From assembly GCA_050084515.1 (NCBI GenBank), contig CM114271.1:29822001-29886000 (forward strand): DNA of 64,000 nucleotides, in the 5' to 3' direction. The notes below the pieces were generated by a model that searched no databases, was not told the DNA's origin, and saw only the letters and a program-made list of their open reading frames with translations. The translations under genes and the position numbers were made by a program. Each line of letters begins with the position of its first letter. Position 1 is the stretch's first letter. Below, piece after piece: positions 5,521-60,516 of the stretch. Source of the stretch: Blasia pusilla. Taxonomy: Eukaryota.

Positions 5521-5642
5521 ATATAGATAGTAGATATTGTAGAAAAACTGCTAAAGAAGCATAACTAATGGGATACGCACAATGATGAATCCATCATTGT
5601 GTTCCATAGCCCCCACATTGTCAGATAATTTCATATTTGGCA

Positions 5643-27889: not shown

Positions 27890-30500
27890 GCAATTTTATG
27901 GCATGGAAGTTTTTTGTTTCAGCATTTTAGAAGGTCTTCCAATGGATTATTATAAGAGGTTTCAATTCTTACATCTTGTAGAGATCGATGCTTGTAGGGT
28001 GTGTTGGGCTTTAAGATGTATGTTCACTAGAGGTTGTTAGGCATATGATGGGGTAGTGAGGGAGGTTAGACCCACAACATCGGCCTAAGGACTAGACGGA
28101 GATGATGAGAGTGATGGCGATAAGGTGGGAAAGACCTTTGGTGGTAGAGCGCCACTTAGTTTCCGTCTATCATGAAATTATTCCTAGAGTTCGGGAGCAA
28201 CTACTAGGGCATGTGGATCAAAAAGTTGAAGAATCTACAAGATTTTTCAGCTAAGATCGGGTAAGAGTCTACAAAAGGCATTCATGCACATGCGACGGCT
28301 GATCATTACCACTCACGGAGTGATTGAGGCACATGCAATTCACTATTGGCATGGGGTTCTAGATCCATGGTCGCACATGAGAGTTCACGATACAATGTTG
28401 CTTCACACGACGAAGCCCACATCGAAGGTGATCTTTGAGTTGTTTGATTGGATTGAGATCAACATGAGTAAGCCTTAGTAAAGAGCATGTTGTGACTACG
28501 AGTCTCCCAAAAATTATTGGAGCGTAGGCAATTCAACATTGGTATGGGGTTTTGGATCTAGACTTGTAGAGGAGAGTTTAGGATGCAATGTTGCTTCATA
28601 CGAGGAAGCCCACATTTAAGGTGGTCTTCGAGTTGTTGGTTGGATTGAGCTCAACATGAGTGAGGAACATATTGTGACCACGAGATTCCCTCAAGATTCA
28701 ACGGATCCACATGTGTCCGAAGCCCCACAAGTGCCCCAACCCGCACCAATGCAACTAGAATAGATTGGTTTATCTAAAGAGCAAAGAAGGTCTTGTGAGA
28801 CTATCAAGGTTGCACACCGACAAAGTCCGTGTCCATGGAAATTTCCATGTGCCCGCGGGCCCGAATAGCTAGGAACGACACGCGAGCCCGAATAGCTAGG
28901 ATCGGCACGCGAGCCTGCCTCCAACCCGCACCCGTTGCGTGGCCCGCAGCCCGGCCTAGTGCGGGCCTCTAGCCTGCCTTGTGGACCTTGGATGCGGGCT
29001 TAAGGCCCGCTAAAATTGATCCGCTAGACCAAGATTTGGTCCGATAGACCACCTTTTGGTCCGGCTGATCACCTTTTGGTCTGCTAGACCAAATTTTTGC
29101 GGGCCCTCGAGCCCATGCCTTCTCTCCTCGAGGTTGTGCTTGCCCGCACCTTGCCCGCCCTAAGCCCGCGCCTACCTGCTCAGAGCCCGTACCTGCCCCC
29201 CTTAAGCTCCAGCCTGCCCGTCTGGAGCCCGCACCTGCCGGCCCTAGCCCGCGCATAACCGCCATAGCCCGCATCTGCACGCCCCAAGCCCGCACCTGCT
29301 TGCCCGGAGCATGGTTGCACAAAAACGGACAATTCCTTCCTTAGGATGGACATGGACGGACAAGTCTGGACATGTCCACGAACATGGATTCCAAGAGGTG
29401 GGACCCACACTTTTAGTTCATGATGGAAGGCAAGGCAGGGATGAGAGGAGCAATAAGGGAGGAGGGAGTGGAGGTGGAGGTGGAGGGAGGAAGAAATGGG
29501 GGAGTATGGAACATAAAGGCAAGTAAGGGGAATTAGACAGAAGGGAAAGGTGGGGCCCATACGTACAAGTCCTTCCATAGGACGGACATGGACATGTCCA
29601 CGAACACGGACTTTGTCCACATACAACCTTGTCCCGGAGCCCACACGTGCCCGTCGGGAGCCCGCCCTAGCCCGCACATGCCTACTTTGAGCCCACGCCT
29701 AGCCTACCCTGAGCCCATCCTGCGGGCACCCAACGGGTGCGGGCTCCGTCAACCCGGGTCTAGGTGGCACGCTCTGAGGTGGGCTCGAGTGCAGGCCCGA
29801 GTGCGGGCCAGACATGCCCGTCCCATAGACGGACTTGTCTATTTGCGTGCAACCTTGGAGACTATGAGGCAATGACCCATGCATATCTATGTTGGATAGC
29901 AAGGACCAAGTTTGGTGTGTTGGATGTGTGTTAGACCCCATAGATAGAGGGATTGCCCACAATATGATGGAGAGCCGGCCGAGGGCGCCTTGATCATAAT
30001 GTTCAAGAGCCACATAAGATAGCCCCACCATAGTCAAAATATGATCAATGTTATTGATATAATCATACTAGGGATATGTGTTTCAAGCTTCACCAAGGGA
30101 TTCGTCTAGAGATAGGACGAGGGCCAAGGAACAGGATATTTTGGGGAATTAATGACGGTGGTGGTAGAGTTCCATTGCTTGTCAGAGGAGATAGACAACA
30201 TGCATCTTATACAACCTTGCTCACTCCCATCGATTACTTGGTGGAGAGGATTGCTACCATGAGGATGACACAACCAGCTATGGACATGAAGCACAAGATA
30301 TTTCTTTAGCTTCAGCTTCCACATCATATCAAGATACGTAGGAGGACTTCTTTAGTATGGTATTTATATGTAGTGCGGCTCAGGAAGAGGTTGCGACTAT
30401 GGTAACTGAGACCTAAGGCACTGCGAGAGTGATCAAAGCTTAGATGAGATGGAGTTGAGATAGACCCAAAGGAGAGAGCTGATAGGTGATAGGTCAGGGT
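27890..30500 (+). mobile_element. Decayed gag of a relative of the DNMT-gypsy family, split by a hAT MITE
   Basis: EGLPMDYY, KLKNLQDF and HMRRLIITTHGVIEAHAIHYWHGVLD match EGAPMDDY, KLRSIHDF and HLRRLINVTQGVIEAQAIQSWYAMID at 43850-44330. Internal duplication at about 28390-28510 / 28585-28695. Confidence 0.7.
28805..29857. mobile_element. Non-autonomous hAT element (MITE)
   Basis: 11-bp TIR CAAGGTTGCAC/GTGCAACCTTG; perfect 8-bp TSD GAGACTAT (28797-28804, 29858-29865); GC-rich cccgcac subrepeats; an internal TIR-like end at ~29313. Confidence 0.9.
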
Positions 30501-30644
30501 TCCCCAATCATTTACAATGACGAAAGTATTACACACACCATCGATAGTGCCCAGACGACTAGCTATCTTCATTTCCTACACTCATTAATACTGAAAGGAA
30601 AAAAACTAAAATCAGAATGTGATTTATATAACATATTATTTTAG

Positions 30645-36229: not shown

Positions 36230-38136
36230 ATGGGAAATATAAAAGTAAAGTAGTGGATTGGTATATTAATTAAAATAAGCTAAAATAGAGTTGGTTGGTT
36301 GCTAGGGTAGTTCGGATAGTTTGGAGGATAGTAAGTGGATTTAGGGGGATATTTTAGGAGGAGATAGCGTGTAATCTAATTCTCTCAAAATAGGATGGGC
36401 CAAACCTTCAAAGGAAGCTATATGGCATAAGATAAGATTAGTCGTATCAAGTAAAGATTCTCTTCGTAGATAGGCACTGGTTTACTCGTTATCTAGTCTA
36501 TCACTTTGGAGAGGCATTCATGAACCAGGTCGTGCAATCACCAATCCCAGTCATAGTTCCTATTATCACGTATGGAAAGACTTGGGATTGTACTTTATAT
36601 GTCCTTATTTAGCGATCTCCAGACGTAAATAGGTCTGCTTGAATAGGGTTCAATACTAGTTGTGCTATTTTTCTTACGTACAAACATAAAGTAGTTTATA
36701 GAGACTTCATAGTTGGATATTTTGGGGTTAGATGTTACAATGAAGTGATTGCCTTCATACTACCGTTCGTGATTCTTGTTGTGAGAGAATGGAGAGTGTG
36801 TGTAGTGATTCTATACTATAAAACTTATTATAGAATTCAATCTTGCATCAACGACTACGTAGCTAGAAGGTCTGTCTTTACTCAAAGAAAACTCTTGATA
36901 GGACAAATGGTGCTTCCACTAAGAGATCTTTGAGATGGTCGATTGTGTTTTGCAAATTTTGGTTTTATCAAGATTACTTCTTTAGGTTGTGCTTTATCAA
37001 TGGAAACTGAGGAAGTTGAGGATCTTCTCCAAACTTTGACAACATTATTGAGTCAACAAAGCGGAGTTCACATGGGAGAGCAAAGATAAAAAAAAGGGCT
37101 CTTCCCAGGGTTTGATGGGAGAAATATCACCAAATATGTTCGAGAGTAAGTATGTGAGATGGTAGAACATCGTGTTCTCAAAAGTGAAATGATGTTAAGT
37201 TTTAAATTAGCTGTAATACCAAAGATTCATAATGAGGTGAAGAAATTGGGAGCTCAAAATCCAACCTCATAGGAGGAGTTTGAGCAATTATTGAAAGGAG
37301 AATTCTTTGATGACGATGTGGATCGAGTAACCAAGAGGACTTTCTTAGAATGGATAGAGCAACGTCTAAGAAAGGGAATGACTCCTCACGAATTATTGCG
37401 TAAGTTTAAGAAGCGATTTTTCCAATTATCTTCTTCTATAAGGGAAATTCTTGAATCTTGATTTGAGGAAAACCGAGCTATTTTTTGAGGCAACTATTGA
37501 TAATTTGAAGGAAAAGCTTTTCCTAATGCCAGTTGATGAGACCGAAGAAGCAGGTATAAGTACGGATGGGAAGAAAGTAGAAGAAGTTGTTTCCATCATC
37601 ACGAAGCAGAGCCGTGGTAGAGATAGAGCTGCAATGTTCAAGTTAGAGGTATCAATTTTGACTTCCTTGAATTGCAGAACCCCGTAGTAACAAAGCTCAA
37701 AGATTCTGCCATTGATAAGTTGGTGAAAGGTTTGACAGAGTTGAGAGTAGAGATGGCCGAGCTTAAGCATGATAGGAATCCTAGTGTTTATGCTCTTTTG
37801 ACAAGTAACAACTTTGTGAGGAGATGCATATGATGTGATAGTATTGAGTATTAAGAATGTGGGGAGTTCTCGGAAGCTCTCAGGAATAGAGTTGTAAATT
37901 TCAGAGATGGAAAGATTCATTCAATACATATTAATATGCCGTTGAATACCAATTTTGGTAAAGGAGGAATGAAGAGCTTATTGAGAGGTCAAGTGAGAAT
38001 GGCCACTATGATATTAGATTCTAAGATCTTTGCAGTGAAGATAGAAGCACCTATTATATCTATAGCTAAGATTGAATAATTAAAATTTCCTATAGAAATG
38101 ATGCTACGAGGGATAGAGACTATCCGTCATCTGACT
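36230..38136 (+). mobile_element. Host Ty3/gypsy element: 5' LTR end, PBS and decayed gag (continues after 46756)
   Basis: LTR end ...GGACA (36905), PBS-like TGGTGCTTCCACTAAGAG (36908), gag from ATG 37000 (FDGRNITKY, EFFDDDVDRVTKRTFLEWIE, TNFGKGGMK). The frame IRHLT| resumes as RWDDYVEV at 46761. The left boundary is approximate. Confidence 0.75.
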
Positions 38137-38449
38137 TGTCGTGCGCATACATATCGCTACACAACATACATCATTGTCACCGAACATACACACAAACACA
38201 TACGATCCCATGCTAACTTATGGCATCCAAACAACAAGACAAGAAGTACCAAAATATATCCAATAGCCCCCCTAGCACGTGGTTAGGTTCCTCTAACTCC
38301 AGATAGTCATCTATCCTACCTACCATGACATACATCTCTCCGACGCTAAGAGCAAGAAGATCGGGTGCTCATGTGGCCCCATCATTAGTCGCCTTATTGT
38401 CATCCATGTCACAGACACAAGTTGGAATGTAGAACTACCTAATCTATGT

Positions 38450-38584
38450 ACATCTGGGACACATCCATTGTCCCTGAGGAACCCTAGTGAGAGGTGGCGT
38501 CAAACATGCCATATGCTATCCTTTCAAACATCCATCACAGACTAGCATAATAGCTGCACCGCGCGCAGAACCACACAACATACA
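38450..38584 (-). pseudogene. PHD finger at the integrase C-terminus
   Basis: CMLC...[31 protein letters not shown] is a C4HC3 PHD consensus with one W->stop. Confidence 0.9.
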
Positions 38585-38785
38585 TCGCAAGTCTGCAAGA
38601 ACTACTACTAAGCTCGGATCAACTATACCGTCAATGTTCGAAAGGTGACACGGTGCACAATTACGCACATGGTCCTTCCAAACCATACCATTGCGTCCCT
38701 CCAATAAGAGAACACCTAATGGCAAAACCTCATGCACTCTCAAGATGGTGCGCCCTGCAGTCACATCCAACGTTGTAGGTGCCGT

Positions 38786-39720
38786 CTATTGCAAGTAGAC
38801 ATAGTCTCCTTGATTAAACCTCTGGATAGTAGGTTGATAACCACCTCCCCATATAGTCGCATACCTCAATGTATCCCGATGTTGCGCAATCGCTAAGTTG
38901 TCAAACGACATGGGCATCACTCTCCGAAATAATTTAGCCCTCTGAGAACATGCTCGCATCCATACATCACGGTCATCAAGGTTCAACACCGCACCAACAT
39001 CTCGACGAATGGCCGTAGGTAAATCTGGGTCACGGCCATAAAGCACCAAGTACGGTGAGAAAGACGCTAAGGATGCCTGGCTGCTGAATCTGTATCCCAT
39101 CGCCAACCATGGCAACTAAAGGTCTCAATCTCCTAGGTAACCTCTCTGCAAGCCATACTTACGTAATCCTCTCTTCACCATCTGCACAACCCTCTCTACT
39201 AGTCCATCCACCTTAGGATGATCTCGTGAAGTGGTGCAATGGTCAATTAGTGCCTAATCACACAAGGCTTGAAACTCCCCGCGAAACTATGTTCCTCGTC
39301 TGTCAACACCTCAGCTGGTGCGCCGTAATGACTCAACACTCGATCTAGGAAGGCATACGCTACTCCCTCATTCGCTTTGTCAAGCAATGCAACCAATTCT
39401 ATCCACTTCGAGAAGTGCTCGATCATCACCAACACATAACGACTATAGCGCTCTATCAAAGGCAAAGGTCCTGCAAAATCCAAACTCTATCTATAACCTA
39501 AACCCATGATCAAAAGTTGATGCAACTATGGAGTCAAAGCATTCAATGATGCTCGGACTTGATCACACACCATGCATCTAGCAACAAACTGTTGAACGTC
39601 AGTCTGCATGCCTCGCCACCAATACTGAATCTAGAGCAAGTTGTACGTCCGCTTCATTCCAAAATGACCCAACTCCTCATGGGCATGACGCACCAAACGT
39701 GCTCTCTACGAAGGATGAGG
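38786..39720 (-). pseudogene. Retrotransposon integrase
   Basis: HEELGHFG..CMVC Zn finger, DFAGPL, EHFSKWIELVAL, VLTD, GLVERVVQMVKRGL, FSPYLVLYGRDPDLP. Confidence 0.9.
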
Positions 39721-40049
39721 CACTACACGCACTCTACCATCCTCCCACACTCGCAACACATATGTCCCCTCCCACCGAAACCGTGTGGCTCATTGTAGGA
39801 TCCGATCCCGCTCTCTAGCACCCACTGTGCTCGCGACGCTGCCAATATGCAGATACTCCAAGACCACTCCATCGTCGCAAATATCTCGGCCACTTGTTGT
39901 CTAGTCATCAGCCTCTGGATCTAAGGACTTTCCATCAAACCTCACCATCGAAGTCTCAACAGTCTCCATAGCCAACAAGCCCAAATAGGCTGACACATGC
40001 CATCCTGGCACCAACTCCTCATCACTCTCACCATGCAAACGACCTCCAC

Positions 40050-41385
40050 TCGCATCTCGCTGACTCGGGCATGGGTTACGGCTCAAACCATCTGTATCTT
40101 AGTTGAGCGTCTCAGGTCTATGCACCACCTAGAAGTCATACTCCTGCAACAAAAGACCTCACCACGCAAGCTTCCTTGTAAGCTTGTCGGACTCCATCAA
40201 CCACTTAAGTGGATGATGATTAGTAATGATGGTAAACGGATTGCCAAATAGATAACATGTGAAGTGAACGACAGTCCACACTACAGCCAAGCACTCACCA
40301 TCATACGAGCTTTACTTTGCCTTTGCAGCGTTGTGCGAGCGACTAGCGTAAGCCACCATGAACTCTCTACCATCATCATCATGTTGGGTGGGCACGGCTC
40401 CAAGCCCCAACATGCTCCAATCGGTATGCAAACGGAAAGGATGCCCCTTGATTGGTCTCTTCAATATGGGCGCGGACATCAATCTGTCCTTCAACATTTG
40501 AAATGCTCTCCTCTTCTCATCCCCGTAGTGCAACTCCTGATCCATCTTGGTCAGAATGGTCAGCGACTTTGCAATCGAGCTGAAACCCTCGACGTACCAT
40601 CGATAGAAGTTTGCCAATCCCATAAATGCACCAACTCGACTCACATCTATAGAGCATGGAATGCCTGAAATAGCCTCTACCTTCCTCTGCTGCACACCAA
40701 GGTCCCCTGGGTATATCATATGACCCAAGTACTCAATCTGGTCGTAGAAGAACTTGCACTTGCCTGGATGTAGCTTCAGCCCATATAATTGCAATCTTCA
40801 AAACACCTCCTCTAGATGTCGCTCATGCTCCTCAACCGTGGCGCTAAAGACTACAATGTCATAATAAAACATCTAGCAAAATCCAGACCTGCCAAGATCC
40901 TATCCATGACCCTATGAAACTTAGCTAAGGCGTTCTTTAACCAAAATGGTAAGAACCGCCACTGGTACAAACAATCCTTCCCGTAAGGATCGATGCCCCA
41001 AAATGTCATCTTGTGCTTGATACGTCTTGTGATCCTCCAATTTGATAGGCAGCTGATGGCATCCGACTCGCAAATCCAATGAACTGAAGACCTTTGCATG
41101 CCCAATCGCATCAAAGATCTCCTCAGGTGTGGGCATGGCATACCTATCGGACTTTGTCTACCGATTGATAGGTCGGTAATCTCCACACATCCGCCTATAC
41201 GTCTAGTTGCCATGCACATCCTTCTTGGCAGGCATGAAAGTGGCAGATGCATACTCCCCATGCGACATCTCCACTAGTCCTGCTCCGACCAAGTGCTGGC
41301 TCTTACTCTGAATCAAAGCCCTCGCCATATCACTATACCTGTAGGGTCGTCGGAAGATCGGCATTTCGCTCGACAACTCAATGCG
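40050..41385 (-). pseudogene. Ty3/gypsy reverse transcriptase and RNase H
   Basis: IFRRPYRY, MPTPEEIFDAIGHAKVFSSLDLRVG, FLPFWLKNA, frameshifted (Y)IDDIVVFS at ~40855, KLHPGKC..YLGH, LHTDWSMLGLGAV. Confidence 0.9.
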
Positions 41386-41389
41386 AATC

Positions 41390-41971
41390 CCTCCGCAACA
41401 CCTCGTGTGGTACCAAGTTGGTCCCCAAAAAATGCAGGGGATGTGCTCGTAAACCCACACTCGCCGCATCCAACAAAACTATCGGGCCGATCCATGCGCG
41501 CACCTGATATGCACTCGTCATCACACAGGACCTCGAATCGCCCAAAAGTGGTACATTCTCTAGAATGTATGCTGGAGGACAAGACTAATGCTCCTACAAG
41601 TGTCACAAGATCCACATCATCTCCCAAAACAACCTGGACCGAGAGTCAACTAATCCGCTACCCCGTCCAGTACTCGACTGGCCCTAACATGGCCAACCAG
41701 CAATAACCAAGTCTATGGTCCCAACCCGCTCCAAGTCCTGTGCCCCCAACAATGAAATATCCCTCGGTAGGGAACTCTGGTAACCCTATATGGCGAACGC
41801 ATACAACAAGTCAAGAAAATGGAGGCGTAACTGCGCCACATGGTGAAGTAAAGCGCGCCTTGTAACATCATCAATCTCCACATACAAGTACTACTGCACG
41901 CGCACTCTAGCATGCAAAACAGCAGCTAACCCAATGTTGATCCCTCCAAAGAGATCAAAAACCCAAATACC
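41390..41971 (-). pseudogene. C5-cytosine DNA methyltransferase domain (DNMT3/bacterial-type motif order), C-terminally truncated
   Basis: One unbroken frame with 6 stops: GIWVFDLFGGINIGLAAV (I), YLYVEID (II), DISLL (III), IDLVIAGWPC*GQSSTGRGSGLVDSRSRLFWEM (IV/V), YILENV (VI), LDAASVGLRAHPLHFLGTNL (VIII). Confidence 0.9.
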
Positions 41972-42399
41972 CTCCTCTAGGATGCACCACACAATCGGGT
42001 TGGTGTCCAAAGGGGTCATAGCAGCACTCTTGCCTACCTGGGATTCCTCTAACCTGTCACACTCTGGTGCAAACGTCTCGCTCCACGCGGTTTGCGCATG
42101 CTCAGTGGCTAAGCGTCGAAGCTCCTCAGCCCCAAAGCGGCACCTCTCCTCCACGGAATGATGCGGCTACCATGACACTCCTCTCCATAGAAATATCAGG
42201 AACAGGAGTATCCTCTGTATGGACATGTCCCTAAATCAAATCACTAGGCCAAGTGATGGCACTACTAAATGCTGCTAAGATCGCCATCTCTTCTGGCCGT
42301 CGCTCTATCACTGCACCTGTGAATCGAACAAGTAATGAGCTAAGGTGCCCATCACCTGACTCCCATCCTGGTCTATAGGACGTTGACTCCTCCCAATCA

Positions 42400-42760
42400 T
42401 CCAAGGAAAATCCCATCGGGTATAACATAGCTCCACCAACCAAGACATCGCAAGACTCTGCATCGGTCCCTATCGCCTTGGCTTGCACCACGGACTCATC
42501 TATAGGATGTCCTAGGCGAATTCTCACCACGACCTCCTGTCGGGTGATATATTGTGTGATACTTGCTCCATCCAAGGATGTCTGCATCTAGAATGGACAA
42601 TGCTCCACATCGGCTCTCGTCAAGCCCAATCCTTTGAATGAAACTTTCCCAACATCAGGGGTTGCGCTCCTAAATCCAACAAGACGTGATGCGGACTAAA
42701 AGCTCTACCTCCATGACTCACCAACTGGAAGACCTCTCCCCGGTTATCTAGCAACACAAC
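42400..42760 (-). pseudogene. Aspartic protease
   Basis: HVLLDLGAQPLMLG (DSG-like active site) and downstream DVLVGG motif. Confidence 0.7.
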
Positions 42761-43399
42761 ACTAGGAGAAGCCATAGCACGCTCTATCGCGGGTCTAGCG
42801 AGCATCTCCGCCATCCTAGCATCCACAGCCTGCCATGAATCTGACATGGACGGCCCAAACATCCGCTCCAAGGGCAAGTCCATCACCTCCTCTGTCATCA
42901 TCTCTGAACGTGATGCAGGAACTCCAACTCTGACTCACATAACGTAGCGGCCAGCCGGAACACCTCGGCGGGCACAACTCCCAATGTTATAACATCGGAA
43001 GCAGAAAATAGCGGATCACGGTACACCATCGTGGTCAGCCCCCAACATTGTACTCGACACATGCTCCTCCTAAGCATCAGCAATAGGAGTCGTTGCACTC
43101 GTTTATCCCATTGCCTTCCATGCCTGCACACCAATAATATCACCAACTCTCCGGGAACTCTTATGAGAACCCATCGATAGGGTCCTCATTGCCTCGGACA
43201 ACGTGAAAGATTGAGGAAGCGTGGTCTGTTTCCTGGCTTCCCCTCATTATGGATCCAACTCTGCGGCTGCTCCACGCATCACAACTACGGCGGTCTCTAT
43301 TTGGGCAATCCCGCACATCCAACCAGGATCCTCTATATCTCTGGCTGCTCCATATGATTTCGATGCCATGGATCCGGCATCAGATAACCTCAATGCCAT

Positions 43400-44481
43400 A
43401 GCGGCAATCTGCTCCTCTAGTTGCTATATCTGAGCAGCCAACCCAACCTCATGCCCCACATCTCCCTCAACGCGTCCAGGTGTGTGACCATATCTCTCAC
43501 AATAGTCACACAGATAACCTCCCGGTGCAACATTATCTCCTCCTCCATACTGAGGCACATGTCCAAGATACTAACAAGTGCAATCACGTTGATGATGGGC
43601 TCCACCACATGACCAACAAGTAATCGTAGGCGGTTGCTACTAAGCTGCATATGGCACGGCCTCTCGGTATCCTCTCTGAGCTCGTGGTGCCACAGTCGAC
43701 CTATCTCGGAGTCCACATTGCTGCATAGGTGGTGTAGACAATCGTGACTACTCTCGCCCAAAACCCATGGTGGCTACGCTTTGCTCGGCCATGTTGCGCT
43801 TAATGTTCTCGGCGGTCCAAAAAACATCTCTCAACATAGGGGAGGTGTTCATAAGAAGCACCCCTCCCGCACCCGTGTCCACAGGATTCGGTCAATCATC
43901 GCATACCATGACTGGATAGCCTGAGCCTCTATCACCCCTTGAGTGACGTTGATCAACCGACGCAAGTGAGTGCAAGCCTCGCGCAAACTCTCACCCGGGC
44001 GCCTCAAGAAGTCATGGATGCTCCGCAACTTCTCCGTCCGTACCCCTTGGTAGCTCGCCCTCAACTCAACGAAGAACTTAACCACGGGGTTGAACCTGGG
44101 AGGAACCCGACTAGATGGTGCAACTACTCTAGTGCGAGTGACCCCTCCTAAAACATCACTAGTGGAAGAGGAAGTAGCCTCTCCTAACTCCTCCTCCTCA
44201 TCTGGGAATGGCTCCATCCATGACACATAGTGTGGGTTATAGTAGAGTTGCCATGCCTCAATCTCCTAGGCATATCTGTGGGAGAACTCATGGTAATCGT
44301 CCATGGGTGCCCCCTCTAAATTCTCGAACATACCTTTCCATGCTGTGAACGGGTTGAACTCTCTAGAGTTCCTAGCCCGTTGTGAGTCACACCAATCCCT
44401 AAACTCTGCAATGAAGTCGTGTAACTCTATAGTGCCTACAACACCCGAAAACCTACACGGTCCTCTACCCCGGTCGTCCAT
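43400..44481 (-). pseudogene. Gag
   Basis: CRFSGVVGTIELHDFIAEFRDWCD, KLRSIHDFLRRPGESLREACTHLRRL (major-homology-region-like), decayed Zn knuckle near 43550. Confidence 0.7.
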
Positions 44482-47400
44482 CTCCTACGCCCAACTGGTA
44501 GGACCACTTAATGTGTATGGTGGATCACTAACACACTCCTTTACACGCTCCCCCTCTTCTGAAGACGACACATAAGGAGATCGAGGTGGTCTCTCACGTG
44601 GAGACCCTCGAAACCCTCCAGAGCTACTCTCAGGTCCACTACCTCGCCTCTCAAAATCCTGAAAGCATGCCGTGATGGCCCTCATGCCCCTTGTGCCCCT
44701 CTCACACAATCACTCCTAATCTCACAAGTAATCCCTCAATCACTCAAACTAAACATGCGGCACTCAATCTACACTCTCTCATTGAGACGTGTGATGTACA
44801 GAAAAGTAATTGATCTATCGTCTCATCCACAAACCATCCTCAACTCAGGACATCCCACACAGTTCTATGTCCCCTAAACCCATACATCATCGATGCTCTC
44901 AGCATCAGCACAAAACCCAATATCCCAAATAACTTCCCAATAGCCGAAAATCCCTCACACGTGCAGGGTAGAAGACCAGAATGGGTAACCTCACAATAAT
45001 GTCGATGTCGCTCCTCGGAAATTGCAAATCTCGGCCCCAACTCGGTCATGAAGACAACTCCTCCAATCAGCAAGTCGTACTCCTCTCGTACTGACGCTGC
45101 TCAAACCTCCTCGATATGCAGCACTAACGGCACAGAACGGCTACAAACGGCACGACACTCGGGAATGGGGTGTGGCACTTGGCGGAATACCCTCCTCAAT
45201 CAGAAATTCACACGCTCAGCTCCTCAGTGAAGGAGTGGCTCCGTGATAGAGATGGTGCGGTGCGGCCATGAGCGGCACGGCGCGGCAATCGGCGGCGCGT
45301 TGCGGCTACAGGCGTCACGGCACGGGACTCGATTGTCATCGAGCGGCTACTAATCACAACATAGCAGCATGAAAGGAAAACCCAAACACCATAACCCAAT
45401 GTCATCTACCATCACTAGTTGATAACGATACTGTGATGATGGTGGCGGCCAAAACAAAGTACGTGGTGGCGGCGCAAATCAGAGAATCAACGATCGTCTT
45501 GGAAGACCCTCCACTATGTAATGGCGGCAATGGCAACCAAGGGTTGACAAGGGCCGAACGCAGCTCTGAGCAACGCTAGGCGGTGGCGGCAGCCGACGGT
45601 GGATGGTGGTCCGTTTACGGTCAATGGTGACAGTTGACCGTTGATGATGACTCTGACGGCAATAGCCGCCGCCGGCGCGGGGGCTGGTTTAGGGTTTGAA
45701 AATTTTAACCCTAAAAATCGCATAGAAATGGAAGTTTTGAAAGATTGACCATAACTTTTTGCTTGCAAATCCAAATTGCGTAGTATCTTTAATACAGCGT
45801 GCACAGCTTTACGATTTACAACAATGTCAAAAAATATTTTGAATCGGACATTCTAGTAAAAATTGATGGGGACTGTTGTACAGCCCAACGTCTCTTTCTC
45901 CTACACAAAATTTGGCAGCGCTTCCGCTCTAATTTCTCCCAACAAAAATGTAAAACCTATGAGAACACAAATCAACAAGCTACATGGTGCTCCCGAGAGC
46001 ACCGGCATGGAGCAATCTGCCCCCATACTCAATTCCTATCAAAAATTGGGCAGCGCTTCCGCATGCCACTCTTCCGTACAAAAAATCAGCAAAGCAAAAC
46101 AACAAATTCGCATGGCTCTTGCTCCGGTGAGCACTCCCATGAGCCATGAAGGGGGGAACATGGTCCCCGAACCTGCACCAAACATCGAGCAACCATAGAG
46201 CTCCCCCATGAAGCTCTCTCACTCAATCATTCTTTCTTTGTAAAATAAGATTCAATCTCTCTCACAATACCATAGTTATCACATGTATGCACTCTCACAT
46301 GTCTCGCTCAATGTCAAACCAAACCCACTCTCCTAATGAGAGGCTTGGATTACATTCATAAGGCAAGGGATCATAGCTCTGCCACCTCGTGCCAAGAAGT
46401 TCAACAAAGAGAGAATGAGCTCTTAAGCTCTCTCTCCCTGAGGTATATCCCTCCTCTCTCCCAAACTCTCTCCTTGGTAACATATGCTCCCAAGTCACCT
46501 CCTTGGCTCTTGACCTGATGTAGGAGGTCAAGGGTCACTTACCAAAAATATATAGTCGACCATATACTCAAAATGGTACTAACCTAAATTAGTAAGTTCT
46601 TCAATATGGCTCCAAATGACCCGAAACGAAGGGGAAACCTGCACTCTCAGATTTCCCGTGGCCTCAACATGTCATTCTCGACCTCTTGAGCCTATCCTCC
46701 ACTACTTGCGAAGGCGCTCTACTAGATCTCACCGATCTATCCTAAAAGATGTGACTTACTAGATGGGATGATTATGTGGAAGTGGGTACGTTAAAGCATA
46801 TTAACATAAGAGAAACATTTCAGTTGGCAAGATGCAAGTGTGGAAGAGAAGAGGCGATGCGATAATAATGGTGGTGATCTTTGAGGAAGCTGCAAGAAGA
46901 GCGAGAATTACAAGAAGGAAAGGTAACTAGAGGTGTAAGCATCAAGAGAAGAAAGGCCTTCTACGTGTGAATCTATGATGGATTCTCACGTTTGAGGAGG
47001 ACTTTGGACAAAATCTCTCCATCAAGGAAGTGTAAGGAACCTTTGATATTGACTACATCTAGTTGGAGGAGTCCAAATCCACATCTTTGGACGTAGGTTC
47101 CATTTCTTTTCAGAGAGATTATCGTGGAATCTTCTCGACCATCAACCTCATATAGTCGAGCAATGGTAACTAGAGAGGCATCCAAAGCAACACTGCTTGC
47201 TCACAATAATAGAGCTCCACCTCCGTGTTGAGGCTCACACTGGTTAGGCTTTGAGACTTCTTGAGAGCTGATAAATGTACTTCTCTTCTCTACTTTGGAG
47301 AAGGGAGAGGCGGAAGTGAATCGAAAGCTCTGTTCTGACAGTGGAGAGAGTGGAAATGCTAGAATCGTAGCACCTACCATCGGAGGAGGGTGTGGTAGCG

Positions 47401-50400
47401 GAGCAGGGTGTGGCAAGAAATCTGCAATCGCATGCAATGACCAGAAGGAAAATCTGTGCGAAGGTACTTTCTGTTGGTGAGAGTGAAAAGCTGGTAAGAA
47501 GATGACTCTCTCAAATTTGCCACAGAAGAAGAAATCCTCCATACCCACCAAATGGCCCCTCCGCCATTGCGATGTCAATTCAATGTTCCACTCCGATTCT
47601 GATCATGTTTCTCTGGGAGAATCAGAGTTAGGGGATTGCACACCATGAGGAGCTCCCCGAGTCCAACATCTTTGGTCAAGAAGCGTCTGCGGCCCTTCTG
47701 AGGAGCTTGACGGATCTCCACAGACCCAAAATAGTCTGTGCACAAGGGAGGGAGAGCCTTGCAAGCACCGCACGAGAATGCGGCGAGCTCATTCTAGAGA
47801 TCTAGCTTGTCCACGGGATCCAGGCCTCCATCAACTGCACCCCGCAACACTATTCTGTTTCTTGCTTCAAAGTCCAACCCCATAGTTGAGCTTCTGCACT
47901 CCAAAACCCTCAAGCACTACAGGAAGGTCCAATTTGTCATGGTAGATGAGACGTAGGGCGAGATAGTATTGAGGCCTTAGAGGAGTCCTGTACTTTTGTA
48001 TTTTGAGAGGTCGTATATGACCTGCTCTTAGGAAGTGACCTACCAGTGTAGGTCACCCTTCCCTTTATGCGGAGTGGCAACCTTGGAGAGGTTGACCTTC
48101 CCAGCCATGTATGGCTCCACTTGGACCTATAGGGTCGTGGGTTAGTTGATAGTTGGTCTCATGAGGAGACTGCATGTGTAGTCGTTAGGGAGCTAGTATG
48201 TATGTACTATTGCCCCTCCATGAACAGAGGAAATGCCCCTCCATGAACGCATGAAATCAAATCATAATCTACCAACCAATCCTCCGCCCAAGTCGGGAAG
48301 CGAAAATAGGATCCCTTACAATAACAAAAAAATATTTTTAAGGGTATAGGCATCACTTCTTATAGCCATCATGCCTATTTTTTTTCTTTTTTCCTTTCCA
48401 CACATAATAACCACCATCCATACTATATAACATAGGATGGGTTTAGAATCCCTCCTCCTCCTATTGACACTTGTCCTATGGGGACTTTCTTGGTGGTGAC
48501 ACATGGCAAAATGGGAATTAGATTTAATCAATGAAAGAAGGGGATGGAGACATTTCGGGTCTATGAACAATGGAGGTCTGTACAGTTCCTCCTTACCCAA
48601 TTTTTTTCCCAAGTTTCATGTCACTTGTGGTGCATAGCACACACGGGCAACGCTCTAGTGTTCAACGCTCTAGATTCTCTTCTCCAAGGCCGCGCACGGT
48701 TGTACGAGTGGGGTCGCCCATTATTAAATATAGATGGTACTCCCCAAAAGCGGAGTTTCGTAAGCTGCCTCTTTTAAGGAAAGATGCACTTCGATAGAAA
48801 CGAGTGATGGAAAACCCATCGGAAAGCGTCGTATCTGTTAGAGTTTCTATTTCCGCTCCCCTCTGTTCGGAGAGGCCGCACATGCTCTGGATGGATTACA
48901 CACAGTCACGCTGCCCGGGGAGTTTTTCTCCCCAGAAACCGGTATTTACCAGGTCATTTATACAGTCAGACTCAGTTTTCCTACTTTTTTCAATTTCTGC
49001 CTACTGTTCGATACAAAATCCAAAAAACCCCTTATTTCCAGCCCATTTTATCCCCGGAGGTTATGGAGAGAAACGGCATTCTTGATTTCTTGTCCAGTAG
49101 TCATGGACTCCGCGTAAGGAGCTCACGTGCACTAAATGGCGGTATGGGGTACATAGTGCCATGATGCCCGAACACATTCCTCGACATGTCTCTTGTCAAC
49201 GGTCTATGCACGGTTTGGTTTCCTCTAGCCGAGATATTCGGCAACAAACTTTGATTTAATTCGGACTGGTCTCGCCATAGTTCTCCACGATGAGACGATT
49301 CCTCACAGCCACGGCCAAAAGACGGGTGGGCGATGCACGTCGCTTCGAAATGCGCGGACATGAGAAAGTGAGGCCAAGAAAGAACCCCGGGAGTGTTCAC
49401 TCGGTTATTTTAGAACCGACCTCGAAGCCCGGTGACGTGTGGTCATTCATCCACGTCATAGGGAAAGGCAAAAGCACTTCTAAGTTCCAACAAGTTCCAA
49501 CCATCCAGTTCCGACAGTTCATGCGTCACAAGAGTTGCAAGATTTTTGTTCCTCCGCCTGGAACCTCCGGACGTGACCGACATGGGAGACCAGGCAATGT
49601 ACATGCTCTAGCAGCGGACTCCTTTGACCGTTCCTCGCAGAGTTCGGTTTAGTCAGCCCACATGCAATGCGATTCCGGACCTCGGATGCTTCGCAACACG
49701 CTGGGCGGTCCCATGAGACCTTTCGTCAGCGCTGATTTCAACTCCGGCGTCATACATCCTTTTATCGTGCGCTGTTGGGAAAAAACATGGCGGAGTATCG
49801 GTAAGATCGGCCTACATGAGGCTGGCGCAGAGGAATTAGTCAGCCAAACTGGTTTTGTGTTCTCCAGGGTGCCAGGCAGGAAAGAGCGTTCAAAGCACCC
49901 ACCTTCGAGCTGGAAAGAAAACATGCTGGGTAAATTTTGGGTGCAAGTCCGACCTTGAGGTAGATTGTTCGCAGAGAAGCTGTTGGATCGACGTGTCCCC
50001 CAAACTTCGCCTGGCCCAGGTATTGATACAGCAGAAAGAGATCACAAGGATAACATTGAGACAGTTTGTATCAGCCCAGTGCAGCGCAATTTATCACATA
50101 ATGCGACAAACTAGATCGGTGCAAAACTTACACAATCAAATTTCAGTTTTATCGTGCTCCTGACACTTCTCTGCCGCTATCTTCCTTCCCCGAGCCTTTT
50201 CTGCGCAGATTTACAATTTGCTCTCCTTGTCCTTGTCCTCTTGGGCATGGTTGGCTCCATCAATCTCGACTACTATCAAATCGCATTTTGTGGTCTCGTA
50301 GTGGTTGTGTGTGGGTGGGTGCCCCTCCGTAGTTTACCATTTTGGGATGCGTGATTCCCGGGGAAGAACTTCTGTCGTGAGGTGCACTTTCGTCAAATTC

Positions 50401-51540
50401 ACGATGAACATAGGGAGAGTCAGCGGAACCTGTCGTTTCACACATTGGAGTTTCAAGAACTCAGATGAATTCTACTCGGTATTAAGCCGAAAATAGTGGG
50501 GCTAGAACGTGGGTTTCCTCTAATTACTAGGCAAGTAACCTTCCATCCATGACCAAGCGAAAGATCTAAAATTAATTTTTTTAACTTGTATCTTACTTTA
50601 CCTTCCCCGCACTCTTCTACAACCGAATTGATTTCACACATTGTTTTGTTTCGTTTGGACTTATGTTCCAGGAGTTGAAGTATTCGAACAAAGGACTAAA
50701 CAAATTCGATCGACGCCATAAAATCTACGAAATTGACTACAGATAAGAGTGATAGTTATTGTTTAGGGACTTTGTCGACCGAATGGTGCGATGCTATGGG
50801 TTTTAACATATTATTCGAAAAGCGAAAGCCCGTTACCACAACTCAAACGATCATGAACTGCATTTTGTAAAGCATGGCTGATTGCGGAGAGGGTTCATAT
50901 TCCCAATGTGCAACTGCGTCCAATGTCCGAAGCTTCATGGATAGGTCCAAATTGAATTCTTAGACGATTTCTCCCATTCTAAACTAAGATATTTTGATCA
51001 CGGAAAAAAAACCTGCTTTGCAGAGTTTGGGTCGCGTCTCCTTAAATACTTCTCACCTTGTACTTTATGATAGAAATTTGAAGTTTGACATCACGTTTTA
51101 ATAAACGAATAGTCGGAGTCATCACGTTTTAATAGACCATCACGTTTTTATAGACGAATAGTCGGAGTCATATCATAATTTTAGTGAAATTGTTGTAGAA
51201 AGAATATCCATCCTATTAAGAGATCTTATTACCACATTCATCATAAGTTCCAACGTGGTACTTCTGTAGATAAGGCCGTGAAAGAAGACCTTGTGATCCT
51301 TTTAATTAAACCCTATTTATTTAAGAAGCATCATAGAATCCTTTGAATAACCCTAATACTCATCCTGGTGACTAATAACCAGAAAGTAATTTGCAATTTC
51401 TAATCAAAGGGGGGGCGTGTGGAACTGCATCCTATCAAAATAGGGTACAATGAAATGAAATTCCGCAAATCGTATCCATCGTGAGATGTCCAGTGATAGG
51501 TCTATCGGAAGAAGTTTGATGTAGGTCGCTTGATACAGAT

Positions 51541-53295
51541 ATGTACTGCCATTGTCCATGTCTGATATATTGCTGGTGCAGTGGCTATCGCCAGCGGCAT
51601 TTTGAACAAATCTGGAATGCTCGAGCGATAAGTGACAACGCTTTTGACTCGAGAAATGGAGATAAAGGCAAGGAGTCGCGGATGGACGAGAATAATCAGG
51701 ATGAAGAGAGAGTTGCTTTTAAGAACTCTATTGAAGGAGGATGGGCCATTGAAACAAAGCGGCCCGAAACCGAAAACGACCGAGATCATGCAACCCTAAA
51801 TGAGCTACACCAATCTCTTCAGGAATGGCCTTCATTCAAGCAAATTCTGTCAGAAATCAACAAGCAGAATAAAATTGGCGGGCCCATAGCAGCAATGAAT
51901 TTGATGTGGTTTGCGAGGTTCATTATCTCCACTTTCTTTTTGGGGCACATGGGTTCTCTACAGCTTGCGGGGGGCACTATGGCCTTGACTTACGCCAATG
52001 TCACCGGATTTTCCATCCTCATGGGGTTATCGGGTGGAATGGAGCCAGTTTGCAGCCAGGCGTATGGAGCTAAGCGTTACATGCTCCTGGGGCTGGCACT
52101 CCAACGTGCCATTCTCATTCTCCTGGTCACATGTTTCCCCATCACAATTGCCTGGTTGAACGTCGAGAGAGTGCTGATTTATTTCGATCAAGATGCGGCC
52201 ATTGCATCTATAGCCAAGGACTACTTGCACTACTTGTTGCCAGACCTCGTAGCTACGGCAGTTTTAGCTCCGCTCAGAATCTACCTCCGATCGCAGTGCA
52301 TAACCAAACCCATGATGCTGTGTTCCGCTATTGCCATGTCGTTGCATATTCCCCTGAATCTTCTCCTTGTCTTCGGCTTGAATTTGGGTGCCTCGGGTAC
52401 TGCTCTCGCCTCATGTTTGACCGACTTCAATCTCATCTTCATGCTGCTCTTGTACATCCGCCTTACGGGGATCCACCGAAGCTCTTGGCCAGGCTGGTCC
52501 AAGTACAGCATGCGGGATTGGGTCCCATTCATGCGCGTGGCTGGCCCCACTTGCTTAATGACGTGCTTGGAGTGGTGGTGCTACGAAACCATGACGATTC
52601 TCACAGGATTTTTGCCCGACGCCCATAAAGCCATAGCCACCATGGCCATCGTCCTAAATGGAGACACCATGTGCTACGCCCTTCAAGTCGCCCTGGGCTC
52701 ATGCGCGTCTACCCGTGTCGGCAATGAGCTCGGAGCGAATTCCCCTTTGGCCGCCTATCATGCTTCGTTGGCTGCCCTTAGCCTTAGCATAGCACTCGCC
52801 TGTTTAGGTGCAGCCGGACTCATTGGCGCTCGCCAAATTTGGGGCAAGCTCTTCACATCCGACCAGCAAATCCTGCTCGGGGTAGCAAAACTTTTGCCCA
52901 TCATGGGACTCTGCGAATTTGGGAACTTCCCTCAGACAGTCTGTTGCGGTGTTTTACGTGGGAGTGCTCGTCCTTCCACTGGTGCTTATGCCAATCTCGG
53001 AGCTTTCTATCTTGTGGGTATACCTCTTGGTGTCTACTTAGCCTTCTCGGTGAAACTGGGCCTTCTTGGTCTCTGGCTTGGGCTCCTGGCCGCTGTGCTC
53101 ACTTGCGCAGTTTTGACGATTACCGCTGTTCTTAGAACAGATTGGATTCAACAAGCCCTTCGTGCCCAGGAGTTGACTTCGTCTGGGACTGCTGTTGATC
53201 CATATGAGTATTCTCCTCCTCGCTCACCTCTCGACCTGCCCTACTGCACTCCCGCGGACAATTCTCATCAGATCCTTGCCCATCAATCACCATGA
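51541..53295 (+). CDS. MATE/DETOXIFICATION efflux transporter, intronless DTX56-like clade
   Basis: Intact 584-aa ORF with MATE motifs FLGHMGSLQLAGG, ANVTGFSIL, CSQAYGAK, CLEWWCYE, STRVGNELGAN, GVLRGSARP, NLGAFYLVGIP. AMNLMWFA and AIVLNGD resemble DTX56 by recall. An alternative in-frame start is ATG 51682. Confidence 0.95.
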   Translation: MYCHCPCLIYCWCSGYRQRHFEQIWNARAISDNAFDSRNGDKGKESRMDENNQDEERVAFKNSIEGGWAIETKRPETENDRDHATLNELHQSLQEWPSFKQILSEINKQNKIGGPIAAMNLMWFARFIISTFFLGHMGSLQLAGGTMALTYANVTGFSILMGLSGGMEPVCSQAYGAKRYMLLGLALQRAILILLVTCFPITIAWLNVERVLIYFDQDAAIASIAKDYLHYLLPDLVATAVLAPLRIYLRSQCITKPMMLCSAIAMSLHIPLNLLLVFGLNLGASGTALASCLTDFNLIFMLLLYIRLTGIHRSSWPGWSKYSMRDWVPFMRVAGPTCLMTCLEWWCYETMTILTGFLPDAHKAIATMAIVLNGDTMCYALQVALGSCASTRVGNELGANSPLAAYHASLAALSLSIALACLGAAGLIGARQIWGKLFTSDQQILLGVAKLLPIMGLCEFGNFPQTVCCGVLRGSARPSTGAYANLGAFYLVGIPLGVYLAFSVKLGLLGLWLGLLAAVLTCAVLTITAVLRTDWIQQALRAQELTSSGTAVDPYEYSPPRSPLDLPYCTPADNSHQILAHQSP

Positions 53296-53451
53296 ATTAA
53301 CGTTTCGGTAACGGCTAGACGCTTTGAAACCACGTTCTCTAAGAAATGAAACGTATCGAAAGTTTTGAAATGCAAGATATTCACGACCTTTTAAGCTCCT
53401 CGACACTTCTGATTTCGAAGTTATCAGACTGTAATATTTTAATGGTCCGTG

Positions 53452-53615
53452 CTATGGATAAAAAATAAATTTTAAGATTTGAATGATTTTTTTTAAATGT
53501 TTAGGAGAAGCTATATGAGGAGAGAACAAAATTTTTATTTCTATGGATAAAAAATAAATTTTAAGAATGGAATGATTTTTTTAAATGTAGGCTATGATGA
53601 GAGAACAACTTTTTG
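53452..53615. repeat. Two-copy ~89-bp tandem repeat
   Basis: ctatggataaaaaataaattttaaga at 53452 and 53541. Confidence 0.8.
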
Positions 53616-53689: not shown

Positions 53690-54650
53690 CGTGAAGGGAA
53701 GGGATTAATGACGTTGCACACAAATTCAATTTTTTTTTAATCCCATAGCATGTGAAATATTTTCTTGCTGCCCAATTGCCACATTTCAAGCAAAGAGGTG
53801 TTTGCAAATCAAGAAGGCACTCTCCCATAATAATATAGATATAGATTGCCGGTTCTTGGATGCGCTCCTACACAACCAAGAACCGGCAATCTATATTATT
53901 ATTATGGGAGATAGTATATAGCCCGTGGAGGAAAAGGTGAAGGGAAAAGATTGATGATGGTGCACATAAATTCAATTTTTTTCTTGCTACCAGAAGCAAT
54001 TGAAATATTTTCTTGCTACACAGAGGTGTTTGCAAATCAAAAATGCACTCTCCCATACTAATAATATAGATATAGATTTCCGGTTCTTGGGTGTGCAGGA
54101 GCGCAGCCAAGAACCGGCAATCTATATTATTATTATGGGATATAGTATATATCCCGTAGAGGAAGAGGTGAAGGGAAAAGATTGATGATGCTGACCACGA
54201 ATTTAATTTTTTCCTTGCTGCCAGTAACATGTGAAATATTTTCTTGGTATCCCATTGCCATGTGTCAAGCAGAGAGGTGTTTGCAAATCAAGAAGGCACT
54301 CTTCCATAATAATATAAACATAGATTTTCGGTTCTTGGTTTGCGGGAGCGAACCCAAAAATTGGCAATCTATATTATTTTTATGGGAGATAGTATATAGC
54401 CCGTGAAGGAAGAGGTGAAGGGAAAAAAATTAAGGATGTTGCAAATACGTTGCCAATGAAATAAAAAAAGTGTTTGAAGAGCTAGTGTATAGCCCATGAA
54501 GGAAAGAGATTAATGATGTTGTACGTAAATTCAAATTTTTTTCTTGCTGCCCGTAACATGTGAAACATTTTCTTTCCGCCCAGTTGCCACATCTCAAGTA
54601 GAGAGGTGTTTGCAAATCGAGAAGGCACTCTCCTATAATAACATAGATGT
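53690..54650. repeat. Tandem array of ~235-245-bp units, each with an internal hairpin
   Basis: Units start gtgaagggaa at ~53691, 53937, 54168 and 54415. The hairpin tatagattgccggttcttgg...ccaagaaccggcaatctata is a perfect 20-bp stem in unit 1. Confidence 0.85.

Positions 54651-57106: not shown

Positions 57107-57184
<78 letters not shown>
57107..57184. repeat. (TC)39 microsatellite
   Basis: Direct read. Confidence 0.95.
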
Positions 57185-60320: not shown

Positions 60321-60516
60321 CGTCCCTGCCTTACGTCTCGAGTCTCCCTCAACTTCTCTATGTGTTGGGCCTCTACCTCCTTCATTGGTATATCCACCGC
60401 CCCCACGAGAAAATCAAACTCCTCGTCCCCGGGGCTACAAGACCACTTGGCGCACAACCTCTGGGCGCCCTCCCCCAAACCATCAAGTTGCTCTTGTGCT
60501 TTCTTTGGCCCTCGAT

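Follow-up and report, generated by a model that had tools for sequence, protein, structure and literature searches.

A relic of a DNMT3-type methyltransferase domain in a Gypsy-type retrotransposon of the liverwort Blasia pusilla, and the family to which it belongs

Retrotransposons that carry their own cytosine DNA methyltransferase (DNMT) have been described explicitly in dinoflagellates and in one charophyte only; the element considered here brings them to land plants. The main text of de Mendoza et al. (2018; PMC5890265) reports such elements from Symbiodinium and from Klebsormidium nitens, treating the latter as an acquisition of the K. nitens lineage, and the enzyme of the Symbiodinium element, SymbioDIRS-Dnmt3, was shown there to carry out de novo CG methylation in yeast. 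The stretch analyzed here ("the window") comprises 64,000 nucleotides of the liverwort Blasia pusilla (assembly GCA_050084515.1, contig CM114271.1, positions 29,822,001 to 29,886,000, forward strand). On its minus strand it holds the decayed remains of a Gypsy-type retrotransposon in which part of a DNMT3-type methyltransferase lies between the protease (PR) and the reverse transcriptase (RT). An earlier note on this DNA, made from its letters, had cited the precedents in Symbiodinium and Klebsormidium, and the main text of the 2018 paper confirms both. The explanation favored here, with a probability of about 0.85, is that the window preserves a relic of a DNMT3-type domain from a retrotransposon family that carries the DNMT as a standard module, taken jointly with a mechanism, set out below, by which active members would make and use the enzyme. 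Since the copy at hand is a relic, it is the family that is of interest.

As described in that main text, KnitGypsy-Dnmt3 of K. nitens shares with this family an unrearranged Dnmt3-type domain in a coding region of Gypsy content, DIRS-like repeats and purifying selection, but its host is a charophyte and its copies are few, whereas here the host is a land plant and copies number in the thousands. SymbioDIRS-Dnmt3 likewise has a Dnmt3-type domain and repeats in the order A-coding-B-A-B (PMC5890265, main text), but it uses a tyrosine recombinase, whereas the present family encodes an integrase of DDE type with an H2C2 zinc domain. The host de novo enzymes DNMT3A and DNMT3B of animals, plant DNMT3 and DRM2 have the catalytic fold and motifs I–X in common with the family, and its motif VIII resembles theirs; unlike them it has neither PWWP nor ADD domain in its chain, lies within gag-pol and reads LGQAMD in motif X, and the motif order, rearranged in DRM, is not rearranged here. 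Chromoviruses carry a chromodomain reader at the integrase C-terminus, presumably for target-site choice. They combine the chromodomain with long terminal repeats (LTRs), whereas this family has a PHD finger and non-LTR termini. DIRS, Ngaro and PAT elements share the A-coding-B-A-B arrangement, but the RT, RNase H and integrase here are of Gypsy type. Green-algal elements with a homologous DNMT and integrase-PHD, introduced below, place the DNMT between RNase H and integrase rather than between PR and RT, and form a fully supported clade separate from that of the bryophyte family.

No explicit description of a land-plant retrotransposon bearing a DNMT was found in full-text searches of the literature, and no paper was found on the green-algal elements of order RT-RNase H-DNMT-integrase-PHD. 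The main text of de Mendoza et al. contains no occurrence of "Marchantia" or, in the portion examined, of "PHD", and the passages seen of a 2026 preprint and a 2025 paper mention "streptophytes" only, citing the 2018 work; the supplementary trees of these two texts may hold bryophyte sequences. A conserved in-frame stop does not figure in the text on KnitGypsy-Dnmt3 either. The stop, the PHD finger and a DNMT placed otherwise than in the algal elements are possibly new features, the comparison with K. nitens being one of published description rather than of sequence.

A methyltransferase half-domain in a dead element

The three minus-strand frames of 37000–46000 were scanned against Pfam with stops read through. 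Together with alignments to related proteins (P numbers) and joints in sequencing reads, the scans outline the first copy in the window (copy 1), from its 5' end to its 3' end, as follows.

46241–46768, minus strand: repeat A, the 5' end of copy 1, beginning GTCACATCTTTTAGGATAGATCG; similar to 17374–17884, 18909–19357 and 20003–20506; read joints at 46755 and 46241
44485–46240, minus strand: untranslated leader from repeat A to gag; 46768–45750 aligns without a break or B unit to 20506–19513
42935–44484, minus strand: decayed gag with a CCHC zinc knuckle at 43618–43580 (tblastn with P0004 residues 9–215 and 214–649; open reading frames)
42129–42934, minus strand: aspartic protease region and linker to the DNMT (tblastn with P0004 residues 646–823)
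41393–41980, minus strand: N-terminal half of a DNMT3-type C5-methyltransferase domain (motifs I, II, IV, VI and VIII) with six in-frame stops (PF00145; alignment to intact relatives)
41391–41392, minus strand: internal deletion junction, about 163 codons gone (tblastn with P0010; RNA reads)
40714–41391, minus strand: reverse transcriptase (RVT_1, E 4.8e-12)
40138–40524, minus strand: RNase H (RT_RNaseH_2, 91.9 bits; RT_RNaseH, 89.5 bits)
39280–39714, minus strand: integrase, H2C2 zinc domain and DDE core (Integrase_H2C2, 59.6 bits; rve, 22.3 bits, under its cut-off; P0029, 41%)
38450–38584, minus strand: PHD finger, C-terminal in the integrase reading frame, one internal stop (PF00628, 36.6 bits)
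38127–38265, minus strand: repeat B, the 3' end of copy 1; similar to 17883–18001 and 18718–18857; read joints at 38136–38139 and 38263–38265

Judged from this anatomy, copy 1 (38127–46768, minus strand) is a dead, internally deleted element. Its PR, DNMT and RT lie in different frames. Similarity to the gag of intact relatives begins at 44466, the tblastn span running to 42641, and the protease motif LLDLGAQ (42682–42644) has DLG where relatives carry DSG; Asp_protease_2 is matched by the relatives P0021, P0022 and L001, the last a metagenome locus described below. The RT region opens at 41391 with GIRIEL, the RVT_1 match covering approximately 41220–40714, and the catalytic YIDD of relatives has become FIMT (40868–40854). 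The order PR-RT-RNase H-integrase, that of Ty3/gypsy elements, is present both in copy 1 and in L001. No tyrosine recombinase appeared in the Pfam results for copy 1, its relatives or L001, which match Integrase_H2C2 and rve instead.

The methyltransferase occupies a minus-strand frame that begins at 42166 and runs for 321 codons with 10 stops, of which six (five TAG and one TGA) fall within 41393–41980. Read through these stops, the frame gives the motifs in the order DLFGG (41956–41942), VEID, AGWPC (41701–41687), LFWE, ENV (41560–41552) and a motif VIII of the form DAASVGLRAH..TNLVPHEVL, the last base of which is 41396; a stop codon immediately follows the Pro-Cys of motif IV (41692–41687). 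Motifs I, IV, VI and VIII are thus present in unrearranged order. The read-through translation matches PF00145 at 34.9 bits (E 1.5e-8; curated cut-off 22), or at 30.6 bits when the whole 9-kb frame is the query, and its closest relatives of solved structure are DNMT3A, DNMT3B and DRM2 (E about 7e-4 to 1.3e-3). The match lies far beyond chance, and the region is genuine C5-methyltransferase sequence. The earlier note had reported ordered motifs in a single stop-interrupted minus-strand frame, between a protease (here 42682–42644) and an RT (here from 41391); that description is borne out, its coordinates for the Pro-Cys and ENV are exact, and the significant PF00145 hit that it had proposed as a test was obtained.

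What the earlier note missed is that only half of the domain remains. In copy 1 the domain halts after motif VIII and passes directly into RT; alignment to 12 intact domains and tblastn both show the target-recognition region and motifs IX and X to be absent. Residues 350–573 of the Marchantia protein P0010 align to 42094–41393 and residues 737–1190 to 41391–39751, and because the alignment jumps from residue 573 to 737 at 41393/41391, some 163 codons are missing. Besides the target-recognition region and motifs IX–X, the deletion took the tail of the first open reading frame (ORF1) and the linker to RT. Interrupted by stops, shifted in frame and deprived of motifs IX and X, copy 1 cannot make an active enzyme. 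The observed/expected ratio of CpG (0.72 in the element, 0.64 in the whole window) does not discriminate.

The family in liverworts, a moss and metagenomes

Even in its decayed state the window query found 33 longer relatives (best E 1.4e-66; best identity 57–60%), of which 16 are from Marchantia polymorpha, one from Calypogeia fissa, one from Sphagnum troendelagicum, and 15 are unnamed or more distant. In the Marchantia proteins P0010 and P0015, PF00145 is accompanied by RT and RNase H. Nine intact DNMT domains, combined in a profile, retrieved 144 proteins at E ≤ 1e-10, and the L001 domain, compared with the whole 50%-clustered library, retrieved 266 cluster representatives at E ≤ 1e-30; the best 150 hits of that scan, all at E ≤ 3.4e-42, are all of transposon type. 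No Klebsormidium-named sequence was present among the relatives from the window query or the nine-domain profile. The earlier note had supposed a land-plant family, and the supposition is sustained by the intact relatives in M. polymorpha, C. fissa and S. troendelagicum and by a MATE gene in the window that is closest to that of Marchantia.

Intact relatives have the complete domain, target-recognition region and motifs IX–X included, and keep all catalytic motifs. In nine aligned domains, which range from 35 to 100% identity, G..G, AGWPCQ, ENV, DAA..GS.AHR.R..W.NL, E.E and LG...D are invariant. The intact Calypogeia domain, with its unrearranged motif order, is nearest to DNMT3A (8.4e-11), followed by DNMT3B, DNMT3C and then DRM (tobacco DRM, 3.9e-7), with HaeIII at 4.4e-4. 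For this domain and for copy 1 alike, the nearest solved structures are DNMT3 enzymes, not DNMT1, DNMT2 or bacterial ones. The PHD finger of the intact L001 element is nearest to that of CHD4 (7.6e-17), followed by PHF12, PHF21A, KAT6A, KDM5A, KDM5B, ATXR5, DPF3, UHRF1 and AIRE. PHD fingers of the CHD4, PHF12, PHF21A, KAT6A, KDM5, ATXR5, UHRF1 and AIRE type read the unmodified tail of histone H3.

The relatives fall into two groups. In group A (bryophytes and part of the metagenome proteins) the order is gag-PR-DNMT, then RT, and 25 of its 26 proteins with a full-length domain end 23–168 residues past the DNMT. In group B, which includes P0031 of Hariotina reticulata and P0260 of Haematococcus lacustris, the order is RT-RNase H-DNMT-integrase-PHD. 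The catalytic motifs are invariant across both groups. Between the groups the DNMTs are 35–38% identical over about 310 residues and the integrase with PHD 41%, while RT identity is 34%, compared with 32% to an unrelated Gypsy element in the window. A tree of 41 rows was built from every one of the 26 domains of group A, one partial row for Sphagnum, 12 of 95 group-B domains (83 being left out) and the two copies in the window. Support was 100/100 for group A, with 29 rows, and likewise for group B, with 12; the copies of the window form a pair (100/98) within a clade of 19 rows that includes bryophyte sequences. From these domain matches and alignments, the DNMT is taken to be a standard module of an integrase-bearing, Gypsy-type family in liverworts and a moss. 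Two side observations concern the tree. The partial Sphagnum DNMT, instead of branching outside the liverwort copies as a whole, falls with those of Marchantia, at a support of only 89/86; this could reflect old co-existing lineages or transfer between hosts. Group B itself, made up of green-algal elements, is large, with approximately 95 further proteins that are common in metagenome assemblies, and is apparently undescribed.

The position of the DNMT in the polyprotein can be followed in metagenome contigs, where 299 stretches encode relatives and 80 loci (L numbers) were kept. In the intact locus L001, ORF1 (976–5085, 1369 codons) encodes gag-PR-DNMT (Asp_protease_2; PF00145 at 51.1 bits) and ORF2 (5086–8229, 1047 codons) encodes RVT_1, RNase H, integrase and PHD. 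Both share one frame, with a single TAG, followed by CAG TTA, between them (5083–5094). The C-terminus of the DNMT is followed by the head of RT within 1.5 kb in 61 of the 80 loci, and in 40 of these 61 the two share a frame, with no intervening stop in 14, one stop in 17, two in 6 and more in 3. PR is followed by DNMT in 34 loci, in the same frame in 26. The earlier note had made its proposal depend on the DNMT being in frame with PR and RT in other copies, and these counts, with L001, answer it in the affirmative.

The single stops lie at fixed sites, and in 14 of the 17 one-stop loci their contexts are conserved. TAG CAR YYA occurs in L001, L002 and L070. In eight loci the context is TTTGCR TAR CAA CC followed by CATG (CAACCCATG), and in L064 the same sequence is followed by TGTG (CAACCTGTG); at these CAA CC sites the stop alternates between TAG and TAA with its position unchanged. 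Two further loci have TGA or TAG followed by CAC CCC. An in-frame stop after the DNMT is kept in three subfamilies, and there are subfamilies that have none. UAG-CAR-YYA is the efficient read-through consensus of tobacco mosaic virus (PMC3159437, in the portion seen). The DNMT is, on this pattern, an in-frame module of the polyprotein and, in several subfamilies, the last domain before a stop that is conserved and probably leaky.

The two ends of copy 1 show no similarity to one another, and conventional LTRs were rejected in favor of an A...B-A-B pattern. The repeats recur elsewhere in the window, in a cluster of remnants of the same family (17372–20506) that revealed the split-repeat structure:

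17374–18001, plus strand: solo A-B unit, 17374–17884 matching A and 17883–18001 matching B, contiguous
18718–20506, minus strand: internally deleted element with A1 and leader (20506–19513), partial B1 (19414–19361), A2 (19357–18909) and B2 (18857–18718)

Repeats A and B are therefore seen in the window as a contiguous A-B (17374–18001), as a partial B-A-B (19414–18718), in which three letters separate B1 from A2, and as an A with leader but without B (20506–19513). When the ends are aligned, the A units, four copies in all, share their first base and the B units their last. Fourteen long metagenome loci were examined for the same pattern: the full A...B-A-B, with repeat pairs 92–94% identical, is present in L012 and L033, an A pair in L003 and L058, and a pair compatible with B1/B2 in L019 and L020; no such pair was found in the remaining 8 of the 14. 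Sequencing reads also join the ends of copy 1. Joints from B to A (46755 to 38136–38139) are spanned by hundreds of DNA reads and by 15–67 RNA reads per listed joint, and the listed joints from A to B (38263–38265 to 46241/46258) by 308 DNA reads in total. The element is bounded by split direct repeats of the form A-coding-B-A-B, not by LTRs. The A2-B2 units expected 3' of repeat B are absent at copy 1, no target-site duplications are evident around the solo A-B unit, and no tRNA primer-binding site was evident by eye after repeat A. We infer that the solo unit and the A...B form of copy 1 are products of recombination between repeat units. DIRS elements have been described as arranged "A-coding region-B-A-B", and Klebsormidium Gypsy-Dnmt3 likewise (de Mendoza et al. 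2018, PMC5890265, main text); the combination of DIRS-like repeats with Gypsy domain content given there for Klebsormidium is found here also.

Abundance, transcription and selection were examined with reads and with a second copy. One raw DNA run and three RNA runs under the same species label were mapped on 38000–53500 at 85% likeness or more. Mean DNA depth over the element was 1715 (17 bins, range 824–3337, both directions summed) against 0.55 over the flanks (nine bins), a ratio of about 3100, or roughly 3000 times single-copy depth. Most mapped reads are 85–95% alike to the window copy, which is therefore a diverged member of a very large family. In the three RNA runs, mean depth was 62, 74 and 64 in one direction and 5.4, 1.8 and 5.2 in the other. 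Provided that the libraries are of the usual stranded type, this RNA has the sense orientation of the element, and coverage that rises toward the 3' end fits. Past 41391, 46 and 56 RNA reads in two of the runs diverge from the window and translate to MEDLGMLKGP, which matches the linker MKELGVLIGP that stands just before GIRIEL in P0010; expressed copies thus retain what copy 1 has lost. At four sites the majority of reads carry one base more than the window does, which accounts for its frameshifts.

The second copy is more decayed, and its DNMT falls slightly short of the PF00145 cut-off (21.8 bits against 22):

57226–60431, minus strand: copy 2, 71–74% identical to copy 1 in nucleotides; gag-PR at 60431–59116, DNMT motif I at 58844–58830 and DNMT motifs IV–VIII at 57740–57226

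In the self-comparison, 41875–43471 is 71% identical to 58764–60353, and 41396–41842 is 74% identical to 57291–57740. Over 131 aligned codons of the DNMT, the ratio of nonsynonymous to synonymous divergence (dN/dS) between the copies is 0.33 (dN 0.194, dS 0.597), with a bootstrap range of 0.20–0.53 and none of 2000 replicates reaching 1. Two wrong frames of the same nucleotides, taken as a control, gave 0.60 and 0.94, and an 88-codon stretch beside the protease gave 0.48. It follows from the ratio of 0.33 that the DNMT was under purifying selection during part of the divergence of the two copies. As to the structure of copy 2, its DNMT is split between motifs I and IV by about 1 kb of unrelated sequence (58763–57741), which has no terminal inverted repeats and no further copy within the window, and the copy ends abruptly beside a perfect (TC)39 microsatellite at 57107–57184.

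Proposed mechanism and competing explanations

The family layout is gag-PR-DNMT-(stop in some)-RT-RNase H-integrase-PHD. In active members a Gag-PR-DNMT precursor would be synthesized, with the DNMT at its C-terminal end. In members that have the stop, the enzyme would be produced at Gag levels, because it sits before the stop in that precursor, and RT-RNase H-integrase-PHD would follow by occasional read-through; members without the stop would make a single fusion product. The DNMT would be packaged into the particle, or would accompany it, and would be released by the protease; the freed enzyme would then methylate cytosines de novo on the element's cDNA or on the new insertion, and the PHD finger of the integrase may steer insertion to chromatin with unmodified histone H3 tails (H3K4-unmethylated). 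The window copy performs none of these steps. Self-methylation as the role of the DNMT is given a little less than an even chance.

Several points weigh against the relic-and-family reading set out at the start. Copy 1 has no open reading frame, lacks motifs IX and X and has an altered RT active site. Among the metagenome loci, 21 of 61 are frame-shifted at the DNMT-RT junction and many copies are decayed, and the full repeat pattern is present in only 2 of 14 long loci. In the bin 41619–42135, which covers most of the DNMT, depth drops to about half that of the adjoining bins, for DNA and RNA alike; part of the family may be without the DNMT, or the DNMT may be more diverged among copies. RNA reads at least 99% like copy 1 number only 4–15 per run, so the RNA signal comes from other copies, and calling that RNA "sense" depends on the usual stranded library type having been used. 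The enzymatic activity of family members is predicted from sequence, and read-through, packaging, self-methylation and PHD specificity are inferred. Finally, in the only direct test in print of a Gypsy-Dnmt3 enzyme, that of Klebsormidium gave no methylation in yeast, a result that the authors call inconclusive in the main text (PMC5890265).

Were the window considered by itself, its stop-riddled half domain would suit a fragment of a host DNMT3/DRM gene or pseudogene that lies in, or was captured by, this one Gypsy copy. That such a one-off event explains the locus is scarcely credible, since the order PR-DNMT-RT is met again in P0010 and P0015 of Marchantia, in L001 and in 61 of 80 metagenome loci, with copy 2 of the window also to be counted, and since the dN/dS of 0.33 and the thousands-fold read depth over the DNMT bins both argue against it. 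It is also very improbable that a DNMT3-like gene fused to gag and protease was domesticated by the host and that the window holds its pseudogene rather than a mobile element. The Marchantia models are annotated as hypothetical proteins, some UniRef names read DNA (cytosine-5-)-methyltransferase, and the early end of 25 of 26 proteins after the DNMT is what a domesticated gene might show, but RT-RNase H-integrase-PHD continue the frame beyond one stop, there are terminal repeats as well as solo units, read depth is approximately 3000-fold and many copies are decayed.

Other alternatives accept the family and concern what its enzyme does or where it came from. The DNMT might act on the host in trans, methylating host loci and silencing, for example, defense or competitor elements, or might serve mainly as a chromatin tether with catalysis secondary. 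This is possible but doubtful, with about a quarter of the weight. Subfamilies with the stop would make the DNMT in Gag-like rather than integrase-like amounts, the abundance and transcription of the family make action in trans conceivable, and an accidental action of retrotransposon Dnmt3 on its host's genome is raised in the main text of de Mendoza et al. (2018, PMC5890265). Against this alternative stands the invariance of the catalytic motifs across 35–100% identity, a sign that catalysis is of importance. A non-catalytic or other role takes what remains after self-methylation, at somewhat under one half, and action in trans, at about one quarter. As to origin, the bryophyte family may have captured its DNMT independently of the green-algal and Klebsormidium elements, as a third, convergent capture. 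The different positions of the DNMT in the polyproteins of groups A and B speak for this, as does an inter-group RT identity of 34%, hardly above the 32% to the unrelated Gypsy element of the window. Independent capture is nevertheless held to be distinctly unlikely: the DNMTs are 35–38% identical over the whole domain, the target-recognition region included, and share unusual motif variants, the integrase and PHD align at 41%, and the arrangement A-coding-B-A-B of the repeats is the one that the main text of the 2018 paper gives for the Klebsormidium element.

The DNMT and integrase-PHD modules have homologues in chlorophytes, in liverworts and in a moss, which suggests a clade older and wider than the acquisition specific to K. 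nitens proposed in 2018. The fuller version, an old green-lineage clade of integrase-bearing elements from algae to bryophytes that has kept the DNMT, the PHD and split repeats, makes the enzyme in bryophytes at Gag stoichiometry by way of a leaky stop and is live in at least one liverwort, with thousands of copies and transcription, is rather unlikely as a whole. If it is true, an element-encoded DNMT3 may write a measurable share of the de novo methylation in that liverwort's genome, either on insertions of the element or in trans, and part of the bryophyte methylome would be transposon-written rather than host-written. The presence of the family in Marchantia polymorpha, where both knock-outs and methylome maps are routine, makes the role of the enzyme for the element testable. 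For transposon specialists, the conserved in-frame stop in a tobamovirus-like read-through context, the PHD finger in the place of a chromodomain and the pairing of a DDE integrase with split direct repeats are of interest in their own right.

Other features of the window

A different Gypsy element, nearly open and chromovirus-like, lies directly upstream of copy 2 on the plus strand (60227–63566). It has open reading frames of 278, 171, 550 and 190 codons, encodes RT, RNase H and integrase, and by eye has a chromodomain-like C-terminus; its RT is only 32–36% identical to that of the DNMT family. A weak gag-like remnant occupies a GC-rich patch at 27918–30552 (plus strand), with 24–32% identity to the gag of P0004 and two short segments at 53–54%.

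The neighboring MATE/DTX (DETOXIFICATION) transporter gene mentioned above, at 51682–53292 on the plus strand, is intronless and has 537 codons. It is 77% identical to a protein of Marchantia polymorpha, 72% and 71% to proteins of Riccia and 63% to one of a moss, which assigns the host to the marchantiopsid liverworts, as a species distinct from M. polymorpha. Almost no RNA depth falls on the gene in the three runs. Lastly, a 231-base tandem repeat in 2.7 copies spans 53786–54426, with related pieces at 2743–2968.

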